Assembly (NCBI GenBank): GCA_947501605.1
Contig: CANMWZ010000016.1
Span: 1-64,000 of the forward strand
Length of the DNA stretch: 64,000 bases
From: Planctomycetota bacterium
Lineage (GTDB): Bacteria; Planctomycetota; UBA1135; UBA2386
Reading direction: 5' to 3'
The notes beneath the pieces are model-generated. The model saw nothing but the letters and a program-made list of their open reading frames with translations, searched no databases and was not told where the DNA came from. Shown here piece after piece: positions 25,756-37,512 of this stretch; position 1 is the first letter of the stretch; every line of letters begins with the position of its first letter. Both the position numbers and the translations under genes were made by a program.

Positions 25756-28014
25756 TCAGGGCAAGTCGTTGAGGAGGCGCTGCGCCGCGCGGCGCACGAT
25801 GGCTGGGTCGAGCCGATACCATCGCGCAACTGCGGCGTCTGTGTCACTCACGCCTTCCTGCCTGAGGGCGGCGGCAAAGTCACGGGCGAGCTGGGAGAAG
25901 CCCTTGACGTGCGGCGATCCCTGATCGTCCTCCGCGAGGAACTCGGCAATGTGCGCGAGCACGATCTCGGGGTGCTTGGTCTCGGCCAACGCCGCCAACT
26001 CGGCGCGTCGTTCCATCTCTGCTTCGATTGCCGCCGGGGAGAGGCCGAATCGAAGGATGAGACCGAGCCCACGCCAGACGTTGTCCTCGAAGGGCAGATA
26101 GTGGAACGAGTCGACGAGATGACGGCGCTCGTGCAACCGGATCACCTCGAGCACCGCTGCCTCCAGGTCGATGTCCTGTAGTCTGGACAACGCAGCGAGG
26201 CGGTAGCTCGCATCCAGAGGATCGAAAACATCGGTGTCGGGAGGCACAGGATCGTCGAGCACGACCAGCCTGTCGGCGAGGGTCGTCGCTCGCCGCGCGG
26301 CGATGGACTGGGCCCATTCGACCACGGCATCGTGATCGATGAGATAGTGGTTCATGAGCGCTACGCCTGCGAGGTCACCACCAAGCACGCCAGACAAGGA
26401 CCGCACCGAACGATCAACGCCCACCACTTCCCGGCAGCGTCCTTGCACGGGCAACACCGGGTCTGTGGGGAGGTCGCGCACGGACAAGCGCGTGAACAGG
26501 AGACCCTCGGCCACTCCTCCGGCTCGCCGCCCGATGACGATGTAGCGGTTGTAGCGCGCGAGATGACGGCTCAACCCGGCGGCGAACGGATCGACCATCT
26601 CGCCCACCAACGGCAGAGTGAAGCGAACATCCGGTTCGACGACGTCTTTCCCAAGCATCGCAATCGACGACCGCCGAACCTCGAGGAGCAGGCTGTCAAG
26701 GTCTGCTCTCGCACTGGCGGCATAGCCGCGATACAGCAGCCGACGTAGGACGTTTTCGAAGGCGACCTCCATGCGCACCTCCTCGCGCAGCGAGCGCATC
26801 TCGTCGTTCGCGCCGTGGCGGCGCACGGCAAGGTCAACTGCAAGTTCGGCCTCCGCAAGAAGACCAGCATCTCGCAAGGCTGCACACCAGGAAGAAGCCG
26901 CCTCGGCCCCAGCACAGGGGTCCTCGCCATCGTCAGCGCAGTCGATCAGTGTCAGCCAAACTGCACGCACCTGGTTATCCTCGGCGAGCAGCAACTCGCG
27001 CGGCAAGTCACCGCGCAACGCCGAGTGGAACGACTTGCTGTCCCCGCACGCGAGTAGCAATCGGCGATACTGACGTCGCAGCGACGGTCCAAGCTCGTCG
27101 TGATCGACAGCTTCGATAGCGATCAAGGCCGCCTGGGGCTGCTGCAGCCGCGGCAGCACGCTCGCCAACAAATCGGTCCCAGCCCCGCGGGCAAAGTTGC
27201 GCCATCGATCCTCGGACTCCCGCAGTGCGTCCAAGCATTGCTCGACTTGCTCGTCGGCAATCCCGGCGCGCAAGAGTTCGCGCAGGATGCCGTGAACGCC
27301 AGGGTCGAACGGACGCGCGCGCACCGCACTGAGGTACGACACCCATCCAAGCGCCCGCTCTGGCCCGCTCCCGAGCGCGAACAGCGTCTGCGCCATCCCG
27401 AGATGCCCCACACCCGCAACGAGCCCACCGGCCTTCGCCATGGTCTCGTAGACCTGAAGCGCATCGCGGAGTCGGCCAGCCGATCGAAGCGAGCTGGCGT
27501 AGGCAACCGCAACAGCTTGGTTCGCCTCGCTCGCCGCGTAAAGCCGTTCGTAGATCGCAAGGGACTGCGACGGATCGACGTCCCGGAGGGAGAACGCCAA
27601 CCCCAACCAAGGCCACAGGCTCTCGGGCTCGAGTTCGGCAGCGCTCGCAAACGCCGTGTGCATAGCCGAACCTGACGGCAACAGCCGTCCGTAGAGGTAC
27701 AACTCGTCCGCTGAGGTGGGTGCCGCCGCAACTCTGGCTGCCGCCTCCGAGCGCAAGAACCCCAGTCGGCCGCGCTGACGAAGCAAATCCTGCCGCAGCC
27801 GCTCGGCTTCGACGAACCTCCCCTCACCCGCAAGAAGGTCAAGATCGCGCAGTCCGCCGTCGATGTCACCGCCGTCGACCTTCCGCTGGATTGTGTGCAA
27901 CCGCTCGTACTGCGGCGGCGTCGCCTTGCTTGCCACCCGCGCTGGCACCGACGACAGAACGTCGATCGCACACCCTCCCAGGAGAACCAGGAGCACCGCC
28001 GCCGAAAATCGCAT
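25756..28014 (-). CDS. TPR-like lipoprotein with C-terminal HExxH metallopeptidase motif
   Basis: Lipobox LGGC, helical repeats, HERRH at 26119-26133 followed by EMERRAE. Confidence 0.7.
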   Translation of the reverse strand: MRFSAAVLLVLLGGCAIDVLSSVPARVASKATPPQYERLHTIQRKVDGGDIDGGLRDLDLLAGEGRFVEAERLRQDLLRQRGRLGFLRSEAAARVAAAPTSADELYLYGRLLPSGSAMHTAFASAAELEPESLWPWLGLAFSLRDVDPSQSLAIYERLYAASEANQAVAVAYASSLRSAGRLRDALQVYETMAKAGGLVAGVGHLGMAQTLFALGSGPERALGWVSYLSAVRARPFDPGVHGILRELLRAGIADEQVEQCLDALRESEDRWRNFARGAGTDLLASVLPRLQQPQAALIAIEAVDHDELGPSLRRQYRRLLLACGDSKSFHSALRGDLPRELLLAEDNQVRAVWLTLIDCADDGEDPCAGAEAASSWCAALRDAGLLAEAELAVDLAVRRHGANDEMRSLREEVRMEVAFENVLRRLLYRGYAASARADLDSLLLEVRRSSIAMLGKDVVEPDVRFTLPLVGEMVDPFAAGLSRHLARYNRYIVIGRRAGGVAEGLLFTRLSVRDLPTDPVLPVQGRCREVVGVDRSVRSLSGVLGGDLAGVALMNHYLIDHDAVVEWAQSIAARRATTLADRLVVLDDPVPPDTDVFDPLDASYRLAALSRLQDIDLEAAVLEVIRLHERRHLVDSFHYLPFEDNVWRGLGLILRFGLSPAAIEAEMERRAELAALAETKHPEIVLAHIAEFLAEDDQGSPHVKGFSQLARDFAAALRQEGVSDTDAAVARWYRLDPAIVRRAAQRLLNDLP

Positions 28015-28047
28015 GACGCGGTGATACGGGCCGCACGAAGCGGACTC

Positions 28048-28247
28048 AAAGAAAAGGCAGTCCCGCGGCGGCGCGTGGGCGCCGCGGGCGCCCGGCCGCG
28101 TGTAGCCCCCCGGCCACTCGCTGCGGCACTCGCCCAACGCACCGTAAGCCCCCCGACCCCGATGCGCTGTTTGCGCAGACCCCCTGATCCTTCGCACGGT
28201 CTGCACATCCACTGCGGTGCGTCCCCCTAGAACCACCGCAGTGTGCA
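28048..28247 (-). ncRNA. Candidate small RNA: four hairpins with G5-G6 runs plus terminator
   Basis: Stems 28210-19/28234-43, 28173-81/28198-206, 28136-44/28160-68 and 28096-107/28112-26. Terminator stem 28062-70/28080-88 followed by a U-tract. Sigma28-like promoter immediately upstream. Confidence 0.6.
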
Positions 28248-28253
28248 CGATGG

Positions 28254-28281
28254 GTATCGGCAAGAACTTGCGTCGGCTTGA
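28254..28281 (-). promoter_or_regulatory. Sigma28 (FliA/SigD)-like promoter TCAAG-N15-GCCGATAC
   Basis: Close to the sigma28 consensus TAAA/TCAAG...GCCGATAA; same spacing as three other sites in the window. Confidence 0.65.
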
Positions 28282-28501
28282 CGATGCAGCCGAGACGTCG
28301 TTGGCAGCGCGATTCAGGAATCCGTGGCGGCAGCGTCGAGCCGAACTCGGCTGAAAAAGTGACGACCGCCCAGCGATACGGCGATGCACACCCTTGTCAT
28401 TCTCCGGACGTTGCCGTGGCGCGTAGGCCCCAAGGAGCGCAGGCAGCCAGAAGGCATGTGGATCCGGGCCGCGTAGCTCGGGCCTCAGAATCCCCCACTC
28501 T

Positions 28502-28598
28502 AAAAAAGTCGCCGGCAACCCGTTCCGGCACTGCTGCTTCCGAAACCCTCACTTGAATCGGAAGCGCCGGTTGCCGGGTTGCCGGCCATTCCATGCGC
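28502..28598 (-). ncRNA. Candidate sigma54-dependent rod-shaped small RNA (~95 nt)
   Basis: Nested inverted repeats: 28511-22/28575-86 (12 bp perfect), 28525-29/28566-70 and 28536-43/28558-65, followed by a U6 tract. Confidence 0.55.
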
Positions 28599-28607
28599 AG
28601 GAGAACT

Positions 28608-28624
28608 AGCGAAGCTCGTGCCAA
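28608..28624 (-). promoter_or_regulatory. Sigma54 promoter TTGGCACGAGCTTCGCT
   Basis: GG-N10-GC geometry with a TTGGCACG -24 box and one mismatch in the -12 box (TCGC). Confidence 0.6.
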
Positions 28625-35758: not shown

Positions 35759-36805
35759 TCAGGACTCGCCGATGGCCGCGGCCACCAGGCAGCCCTTCGC
35801 CACCGCAGTCAGTGCCTCGTCGCTGCGGAAGATGCGCCCAACCGGGATCGGGAACGCGATCTTCGCGAACTCCTCGCGGAACACTTCAATGAACCCGCCC
35901 ACCAGTGACGTGCCGCCAGCACATGCGATGTCGATTGGCTGCTGGAAGCTCGGCATGTTCCTGCCGGATTCGAACCGTGCCTTGATGTTCGTCAATACGT
36001 AGCTGATGAGGCTGCGGTAGTAGATCGAGACCGCTTCTTCCTCGCGGCTCTTCGGATCGCGAATATCGATGCCGCGTTCCTTGATGTAGGCCGCCTTGCT
36101 CCGCGGAACACCGAGGACGTGCGCCACGTTCTTGTCGATCCAGTCGCCGCCGCGGGCAACCGAGAACGACAGACAGGGGATCGACTTGTACGAAATGCAG
36201 GCGTTGGCCATGCCGCCGCCAAAGCTCAACCCGATACCGGTGAAATCGCTCTCCGCCAGTTCGGCGAAGATGACTGCATGAGCCTCGTTTATTGCATGGG
36301 CGGTGTAGCCCATCTTGTTGATCATGCTCTCGAAGAGGCCCTGGTGGTAGACAACGTTGTTGTCGACGTCGAGCGAAGGGGCCGGCACGCAGAAATAGCA
36401 GTTCTCGCCGGCCTGACGCGGCTCGCCGAGAATCTTGCTGATGATCAGCTTCATCATCGGCAGTGCATCAACCTCGTTCGGGCTGACGAGGCCATCTTGC
36501 ATCGGACGACGCGTCTCACGACCGAACACGTTCGCAAGTTCGAAGGCAGCCTCCCCGATGACGACCAACTTGCCGTTGTGCACTACGTAGGGCACCTTCA
36601 GCTTGGTCAGCATGTTCTTGCTGTAGACGTCGCTCGGGATGTCGAGGAACGCGTTGCGTTCCACGGTCACCGTGATGCCGCCTTCGTCATTCTGAACGGC
36701 CGCCGCGAGATTCGCGGTGCCGACGTCGAGGCCCTTGCCGAGCGCGACTTCCGTGTCGGCGCTATGATCGGTGGCGCGCAGGTTCTTGTTTTGATTGTCA
36801 GTCAT
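35759..36805 (-). CDS. Actin-fold ATPase, volactin-like (not MreB, FtsA or DnaK)
   Basis: Phosphate-1 GLDVGTAN, connect-1 INEAHAV, phosphate-2 GLSFGGGMAN, RGGDWID, adenosine ACAGGTS and connect-2 AVAKGCL; AGGAAG RBS. Confidence 0.88.
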   Translation of the reverse strand: MTDNQNKNLRATDHSADTEVALGKGLDVGTANLAAAVQNDEGGITVTVERNAFLDIPSDVYSKNMLTKLKVPYVVHNGKLVVIGEAAFELANVFGRETRRPMQDGLVSPNEVDALPMMKLIISKILGEPRQAGENCYFCVPAPSLDVDNNVVYHQGLFESMINKMGYTAHAINEAHAVIFAELAESDFTGIGLSFGGGMANACISYKSIPCLSFSVARGGDWIDKNVAHVLGVPRSKAAYIKERGIDIRDPKSREEEAVSIYYRSLISYVLTNIKARFESGRNMPSFQQPIDIACAGGTSLVGGFIEVFREEFAKIAFPIPVGRIFRSDEALTAVAKGCLVAAAIGES

Positions 36806-36840
36806 GGTCGTGTGTCTTCCTGATCGTCCCTGCGGCTGGA

Positions 36841-37512
36841 TCAACCGCCGCCCTTGAGTTTCTTCAGGCGCTCCAAGTTGGCGGCGATCCCGCCGCCGAC
36901 CTTCTTCTTGACCTGGATGTTGTCCATGTTGGACTCGAGGTCCTTGCCTGTGTCCTTGAACAGCCCGTCGAACTTGATGTCCTCGCCTTCGACGGCCGCG
37001 CTGATGCCCATTTTCTTGCCGAGTTTCTCCAGCCGGTCGTTGAGGGACCCGGCCAGTTTCTCGATGGCTGCAGAGATGTCTGGCGAACCACCAACCGCCT
37101 GCAGCGTGGTGGAGCCGCTCTGCAGAGTCGCCGGAGCTTGACCCGCGGTTGCCGAGGATCCCTGTGCTGAGGATCGACGCGCGACCTCAAGCTCATTGGT
37201 CAGGCGCTCGATCTCCGCGTCGCGAGTTTGGAGTGCGTCCTGCAGCTCCGCGAGCTTGCCGAGCTCGTCCTCGCGTTCGCGCATCAGCGAACGGAACTCG
37301 TCGCGACTGCGCGCGACCAGACGGTCCGCATCTTCTTTCGGGACGAGGCCCGACGCATCGATCGCGGAATGCACGGCTGCATGGATCATCGCCGCGACGT
37401 GCTCGGCCTTGATCAGACGCACTTTCTTGCGGCCTTCGCTAGCCAGCTGCTCGAGCGTCGCCGTGCGCGATCGCGCCGAGAGTGCGTCCTTTACGTCCTT
37501 GACGGTTTCCAT
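36841..37512 (-). CDS. Coiled-coil protein with amphipathic C-terminal tail, upstream partner of the actin-like gene
   Basis: Heptads REREDELGKLAELQDALQTRDAEIERLTNELE, low-complexity linker, tail ESNMDNIQVKKKVGGGIAANLERLKKLKGGG. Confidence 0.8.
   Translation of the reverse strand: METVKDVKDALSARSRTATLEQLASEGRKKVRLIKAEHVAAMIHAAVHSAIDASGLVPKEDADRLVARSRDEFRSLMREREDELGKLAELQDALQTRDAEIERLTNELEVARRSSAQGSSATAGQAPATLQSGSTTLQAVGGSPDISAAIEKLAGSLNDRLEKLGKKMGISAAVEGEDIKFDGLFKDTGKDLESNMDNIQVKKKVGGGIAANLERLKKLKGGG

Follow-up and report, generated by a model that had tools for sequence, protein, structure and literature searches.

A predicted small RNA family of uncultured planctomycetes with repeated GGGG tetraloops and a probable loop-loop pseudoknot

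CsrB, CsrC, RsmY, and RsmZ are stand-alone sponge RNAs, each with its own promoter and terminator, in which a short purine motif is repeated in hairpin loops. Recognition of GGA in the Csr/Rsm systems is described in PMC12247646. The cuckoo RNAs (RSs0680/CcsR and alpha-r14) are reported to carry a 9-nt C-rich anti-Shine-Dalgarno motif in their loops (PMC4615179). Kissing loops are used by the assembling RNAs manA, ROOL, and GOLLD (bioRxiv 10.64898/2026.07.01.735769; PMC12286853), and sigma28-dependent sRNAs of E. coli and Campylobacter are described as pairing with mRNAs in flagellar control (PMC10578931, PMC11187230). The planctomycete RNA described here shares traits with each of these systems. 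In the literature searched, no description of it was found, and neither was a repeated GGGG tetraloop in a bacterial RNA; large RNA-motif surveys may list it in their supplements.

The RNA gene lies on the minus strand of the window, by which we mean the whole 64,000-nt stretch analyzed; its parts are given in the table. The original prediction had proposed an unannotated RNA, roughly 200 nt long and equipped with a promoter and a terminator of its own. All of the sequence quoted in its support was recovered in place on the minus strand: TCAAG at 28281 to 28277, 15 nt, GCCGAT at 28261 to 28256, four hairpins, a GC stem, and the U-tract end of the element, UUUUCUUU, at 28055 to 28048. The predicted 5' end agrees with a conserved 5' word that begins 8 nt past the -10 hexamer in most homologs. 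In its genome the RNA is single copy by BLAST and by a model search, and a repeat or mobile element was rejected on that count.

Features of the RNA gene and its surroundings (coordinates within the window)
Feature	Position	Strand	Remarks
RNA gene, ~200 nt, five hairpins	28048..28248	minus	model matches 28049-28248; 5' end inferred from promoter
Hairpin 1, G-rich tip	28210..28243	minus	Y[GGGG]R in most homologs, variant in this copy
Hairpin 2, large conserved loop	28172..28207	minus	UGCG at 28196-28193, proposed kissing strand
Hairpin 3, GGGG tetraloop at 28154-28151	28135..28169	minus	tip pairs covary
Hairpin 4, GGGG tetraloop at 28111-28108	28095..28127	minus	covariation in fitted alignment A6
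Hairpin 5 and U tract, terminator-like	28048..28093	minus	loop CGCG at 28075-28072 complementary to hairpin-2 loop
FliA/WhiG (sigma28)-type promoter, TCAAG-N15-GCCGAT	28256..28281	minus	conserved in homologs
Upstream box C-N-N-TG-N-CAYCG, part-palindromic, putative activator site	28299..28309	minus	25 nt above promoter
Sigma70-like promoter of next gene, leaderless start 28014	28014..28049	minus	overlaps the RNA's U tract; from sequence

That the RNA was unannotated held: no Rfam family, including riboswitches, ribozymes, sRNAs, and manA, was found to match it. Rfam gave 0 matches at gathering score within the window, three chance matches between 27900 and 28800 (E values, 3.5 to 8.8), none of them over hairpins 1 to 4, and nothing over the RNA in 10 homolog loci. 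A diverged housekeeping RNA was rejected, as SRP RNA, RNase P RNA, and tmRNA were found elsewhere in the genome. A 6S RNA candidate also lies elsewhere in the genome (37.7 bits, below the cut-off).

Homologs within reach of the models were found in the home family (f1) and the sister family (f7). With a first model of 25 sequences (R1), one copy was found in 37 of 42 other f1 genomes and in 2 of 11 f7 genomes, against 0 of 97 in the remaining eight families of the order. The improved model (R3) matched 17/19 f1 and 4/4 f7 genomes, with one false match in family f10, and gave no credible match in five f1 genomes that are 79 to 89% complete. Across the phylum, only the three f1 members among 150 genomes gave real matches. 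A pattern scan of metagenomes returned 28 loci, 26 of which R3 matched. Once duplicate loci had been dropped, 54 distinct sequences remained, 52 to 76% identical to this copy, and their hosts are uncultured freshwater and soil planctomycetes.

Several other matches were rejected. The weak f10 match (L163) falls within a coding region, and congeners do not preserve its hairpins; another weak match (L164) is a tandem repeat; two weak matches at the phylum level (E values, 0.004 and 0.049) were discarded on inspection; and 13 exact matches of the hairpin-2 word in viral contigs included no phage homolog. A weak second match in the genome studied here (G000:C6:70164-70331; minus strand; E value, 0.007) overlaps a gene end and is without hairpin 5, and we took it to be due to chance. 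On the plus strand of this region, inspection by eye shows a possible short open reading frame with a strong Shine-Dalgarno word, located after the preceding gene.

The minus strand folds better relative to shuffled sequences than the plus strand does, both over 251 nt (z, -2.47 versus -1.74) and in local folding with 25 shuffles (z, -5.0 versus -2.2). Pairing was counted in a plain, unfitted MAFFT alignment of 25 sequences (A2) and in a structure-fitted alignment (A6). The G-U strand asymmetry that had been noted in this copy extends across the homologs, with 71 G-U against 2 A-C combinations in 25 chosen stem pairs of A2 and 553 against 36 in A6. Because G-U lies so far above A-C, the transcribed strand is fixed as minus, and the opposite strand, with its C-rich cuckoo-like loops, is ruled out by the count of 71 versus 2. 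In A6, which is biased toward the structure to which it was fitted, 93.4% of cells are paired, and two-sided change is seen in 58 of 66 pairs. In A2, 26 chosen pairs (hairpins 2, 3, and 5 and the kissing contact described below) are 98.8% paired, compared with 31 to 60% in slid controls, and 12 of the 26 have two-sided change; the hairpin-2 stem is 99% paired, with two-sided change in 7 of 9 pairs, and the hairpin-5 stem is 99.6% paired. The stems covary across the 54 distinct homologs, and the recurrence of one loop motif on differing stems also held up, the loop letters being near-invariant while the stems are free to vary. Judged by comparison of sequences, the element is a real structured RNA family without an Rfam entry.

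The RNA gene is flanked by two genes, also on the minus strand, to which neither Pfam nor NCBIfam gives a name. The same lipoprotein-like gene lies downstream in 44 of the 54 loci. In 8 its place is taken by a different gene or by one in inverted orientation, and 2 loci were not judgeable; the upstream genes vary. Because the RNA is parted from its usual neighbor in 8 of 54 loci, we regard it as a stand-alone gene, and these exchanges, along with the promoter and terminator recognized by sequence, bear out its predicted independence. A TA-type -10 word stands shortly before a start codon in 35/54 loci (a loose pattern, with no shuffle control). A coding function or an N-terminal extension of the neighbor was rejected, and the RNA is judged noncoding: although no stop interrupts the downstream reading frame across the RNA in this genome, the same holds for only 18 of 49 homologs, and the lengths of the core modulo 3 are distributed 20/13/21.

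The family-wide neighbor (25756 to 28014, minus strand) encodes a protein of 752 amino acids that has a lipoprotein-like signal and, near residue 628, an HExxH motif; it has no Pfam or NCBIfam match and is possibly a lipoprotein metallopeptidase. A second small RNA candidate occupies 28502 to 28624 on the minus strand, where an irregular hairpin of about 97 nt (z, -4.5) is followed by a U tract; its putative promoter at 28609 to 28624 is sigma54-like. This candidate has no Rfam match and is conserved with stem changes in the four congeners and in genome G018, and an unrelated hairpin takes its place in G007. Farther along the minus strand, 35759 to 36844 encodes an actin homolog of the Volactin family (PF25216).

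Each domain of each of the 54 homologs was folded separately to count the hairpin tips. A pyrimidine-GGGG-purine tetraloop, Y[GGGG]R, was found on hairpin 1 in 37, on hairpin 3 in 47, and on hairpin 4 in 45 of the 54; most of the remaining tips still hold a GGG-containing loop (10 more homologs for hairpin 1), and on hairpins 3 and 4 loop G runs of at least four occur in 53/54 homologs. The closing pair alternates among U-G, U-A, and C-G while the four-G loop is retained. Exceptions with GUGG, AGGG, or GAAGG are confined to single homologs, and in this copy hairpin 1 has a variant tip, U[AGG]G. Of the four hairpins with runs of five or six G's in the original prediction, the repeated G tips therefore stand but not as free G5 or G6 loops: on hairpins 3 and 4, four G's form the tetraloop and the others pair in the stem. 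Hairpin 2 does not belong to the series: there the G's run along the 3' side and are in part stem letters, and the word that hardly varies is UGCG. In the sister family, three members found after model building (L160 to L162) lack GGGG on hairpin 1 and keep runs of G4 or longer on hairpins 3 and 4, so the number of GGGG modules, as read from these sequences, is flexible (three in the main family and two in the sister family). A G-quadruplex switch made from four G tracts had also been suggested; such tracts are present in most homologs, but three of them are found at the tips of covarying hairpins and hairpin 2 is a module of another kind, which makes the switch seem less likely.

A feature absent from the original prediction is a probable pseudoknot between the loops of hairpins 2 and 5. 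Over its four core pairs, the hairpin-2 loop UGCG is complementary to the hairpin-5 loop CGCR in 215 of 216 cells of alignment A3 and in 100 of 100 cells of A2; in A3, U faces only A or G and the last G faces C or U, and two rarer changes in the hairpin-2 loop come with fitting hairpin-5 partners. This kissing contact ranks first among 202 pairs of unpaired four-column windows, followed by the G runs against the U tail, and the three later-found sister-family members have GCGCG with CGCGC. The kissing pairs are mostly invariant or changed on one side (two are near-invariant in A3, with two-sided changes in 3 cells only), and a fifth pair is broken in 23/54 homologs. Conserved unpaired purines flank the contact. 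The reading of the last hairpin as a terminator needs extension: it is a GC stem with a U tract, although one that a simple terminator scan did not call, but its stem and loop are conserved in sequence and the loop is complementary to hairpin 2. A likeness of the hairpin-2 loop to the 16S rRNA 3' tail was rejected, the word not being kept in divergent homologs and the 16S tail not being found in this assembly. In the sister-family loci L159 to L162 and L079, a word of 12 to 14 nt that is nearly the main-family hairpin-2 loop word lies about 45 to 70 nt upstream of the model match, where it may mark either an RNA extended at its 5' end or a site in the DNA.

The promoter that had been predicted for the RNA is conserved before its homologs: TCAAG-N15-17-GNCGAT scores at least 9/12 in 43 of 54, with a spacer of 15 nt in 34, 16 nt in 3, and 17 nt in 6, and it was not found before the two sister-family members among the 54. 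The promoters of E. coli FliA are described with the same words and a 14-nt spacer (PMC4183435), and this genome has two or three FliA/WhiG paralogs, two of them over the cut-off; the sigma factor serving the RNA is putatively of this type. Genome sites of the motif with a 16-nt spacer are intergenic in 35 of 37 cases and those with a 15-nt spacer in 16 of 40, against a background of 10% intergenic sequence by rough gene calls; among the genes that follow the best sites are fliD, a PilT-like ATPase, gidA, one flagellin, and many without assigned function. In all, promoters of this type front about 75 intergenic sites in this genome, with many leaderless starts and nonflagellar genes. Among such promoters the upstream box is specific to this RNA gene, as TG[CGA]CA occurs at the box distance in 37/46 homolog promoters but in 1/51 promoters of the same type in the genome, that one being the gene's own. 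In 10 homologs (L007, L009, L010, L059, L064, L070, L072, L073, L075, and L076), 25 to 45 extra nucleotides, often with a short hairpin, separate the promoter from hairpin 1.

A flagellar function was rejected. Of the 37 family genomes that bear the RNA, 10 (82 to 94% complete) gave no flagellin match, and flagellin is present in 4/4 f10 genomes without the RNA. Since the RNA persists in genomes that gave no flagellin match, its link appears to be to the wider regulon of the sigma factor rather than to flagella. The genome studied here has flagella genes but no CsrA that we found, and one of its five flagellin genes (G000:C23:31962-32777) has an internal TAG stop.

Four RNA runs were available as contigs, which cannot show transcript ends or levels. 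Contigs over the RNA gene have a depth of 5 to 10, the same as over its neighbors, and read through the gene; one spans the RNA and the downstream gene, and no discrete or abundant transcript (no discrete high-depth contig) was seen in these runs. Contig X5 stops at 28247, the position predicted for the start; X5 and X7 do not cover the RNA.

Our preferred explanation, to which we give a probability of roughly 0.45, is that the RNA is a rigid multivalent decoy or scaffold for a protein that binds G loops; that the ligand is a protein is a guess. The RNA would be transcribed from the FliA/WhiG-type promoter with the help of the extra activator box and would act in trans. A loop-loop pseudoknot of 4 to 5 bp would lock hairpins 2 and 5 together, and hairpins 3 and 4, joined in the main family by hairpin 1, would be held as rigid arms showing their GGGG tetraloops. 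Several copies of one G-loop-recognizing protein could then be bound and so titrated or organized, by analogy with CsrB and CsrA, though motif and protein would both differ. A short motif on long, varying, rigid stems, a variable number of modules, and the lack of a conserved seed fit multivalent protein binding best. The sponge-like character originally suggested thus remains our best guess because of the repeated-loop anatomy, but a link to CsrA is not supported: a search of 151 genomes of the order, whose controls gave matches in 3 of 14, found CsrA in none of them. Hfq was not found in this genome (91% complete). RRM proteins occur in 143/151 genomes, those without the RNA included, and were not found in the RNA-bearing genomes G030 and G061, so they do not track the RNA; no partner was found among CsrA, Hfq, and RRM proteins. 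GGGG-loop hairpins stand before genes at five sites, one of which is this RNA, a number not clearly enriched, and flagellin leaders have none, so that mRNAs showed no sites at which such a protein would bind.

Pairing with other RNAs, the mirror image of the cuckoo RNAs, would have the GGGG loops engage mRNAs at C-rich loops or leaders, or else kiss C-rich sRNAs or the anti-Shine-Dalgarno tail of 16S rRNA. The repetition of one loop motif on variable stems resembles the cuckoo RNAs as described (PMC4615179), CCCC outnumbers GGGG about twofold in the 120 nt that precede genes (2,092 versus 1,099), and the Shine-Dalgarno sites of the genome are GGAG. Yet a 4-nt loop without conserved flanks makes a poor antisense seed, a duplex scan of 3,408 start regions gave only stem-driven matches, no conserved C-loop partner was identified in the intergenic regions of one genome, and the failure to find Hfq in this genome also counts against pairing, which we consider unlikely. 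A different use of the same loops would be RNA-only assembly, in which hairpins 2 and 5 kiss between molecules to give rings or cages and the GGGG tips meet in G-quartets. The top rank of the kiss among the 202 loop-window pairs and the near-constant G runs of hairpins 3 and 4 agree with this, and natural RNAs of less than 200 nt are reported to form cages by kissing loops (bioRxiv 10.64898/2026.07.01.735769). However, pairing within and between molecules is indistinguishable by sequence, some homologs have the interrupted tips noted above, a tetraloop would be a strained source of quadruplex strands, and the RNA-library contigs give no hint of very high abundance; we hold assembly to be quite improbable.

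We see only a slim chance of a cis-acting leader or riboswitch of the downstream lipoprotein gene, in which the hairpin-2/5 pairing or an alternative hairpin would switch the terminator. The constancy of that gene, the unusual sequence conservation of the terminator, an alternative short hairpin on the terminator's 5' side in some single-sequence folds, and the contig that covers both RNA and gene would suit such a leader, but the gene is unrelated or inverted in 8/54 loci, and likewise in the sister family, and has its own promoter-like words and a leaderless start, and no riboswitch matched. Equally slim is the chance of a small-molecule-binding or catalytic RNA with the hairpin-2/5 pseudoknot as its core, for example a sponge for a nucleotide messenger like the merRNA of Bdellovibrio. 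Such a core would account for a conserved tertiary contact beside conserved unpaired purines, and in merRNA an aptamer RNA that stands alone has already been described (PMC3627812), but no aptamer or ribozyme family matched and three separate GGGG tips would be left unexplained. A broader proposal, which we regard as doubtful, is that this is a new class of RNA in which a loop-loop pseudoknot, possibly intermolecular, arrays GGGG tetraloops, either as a posttranscriptional regulator that replaces Csr in planctomycetes without CsrA and Hfq or for self-assembly via G-quartets between tips.

Returning to the preferred reading, a decoy or scaffold for a G-loop-binding protein, the RNA family lies outside Rfam in a lineage where CsrA and Hfq, the two best-known small-RNA partners, were not found. 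Being short, the RNA can be made in vitro and used as bait for a regulator that serves in place of CsrA or Hfq, and its conserved kissing loop offers a clean test case.

Among known systems, CsrB, CsrC, RsmY, and RsmZ are like this RNA in standing alone, with a promoter and terminator (here by sequence), and in repeating a short purine motif on variable stems. Unlike them, it shows a GGGG tetraloop rather than GGA, of which it has one similar word, in hairpin 2; it has only two or three copies of its motif, long covarying stems, and a probable pseudoknot, and its hosts belong to the order in whose 151 genomes CsrA was not found. With the cuckoo RNAs, as described, it shares two to four adjacent hairpins with one loop motif, variable stems, an alternative-sigma promoter, and a variable number of modules (PMC4615179), but its loops are G-rich on the transcribed strand, in place of the cuckoo motif CCUCCUCCC, and 4 nt long, and it is a single-copy RNA of a different phylum, with no Hfq found in this genome. 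Conserved loop-loop complementarity recalls manA, ROOL, and GOLLD, and manA is reported to be of similar size (<200 nt); unlike these, our RNA has no Rfam match and only one loop pair was found; assembly here would be a candidate property. It resembles the sigma28-dependent sRNAs of E. coli and Campylobacter in its FliA-type promoter but differs in that 10 of its 37 carrier genomes keep it although no flagellin was found in them. On these sequence comparisons, the RNA would join the repeated-loop display RNAs as a new variant with a probable pseudoknot and a putative function.
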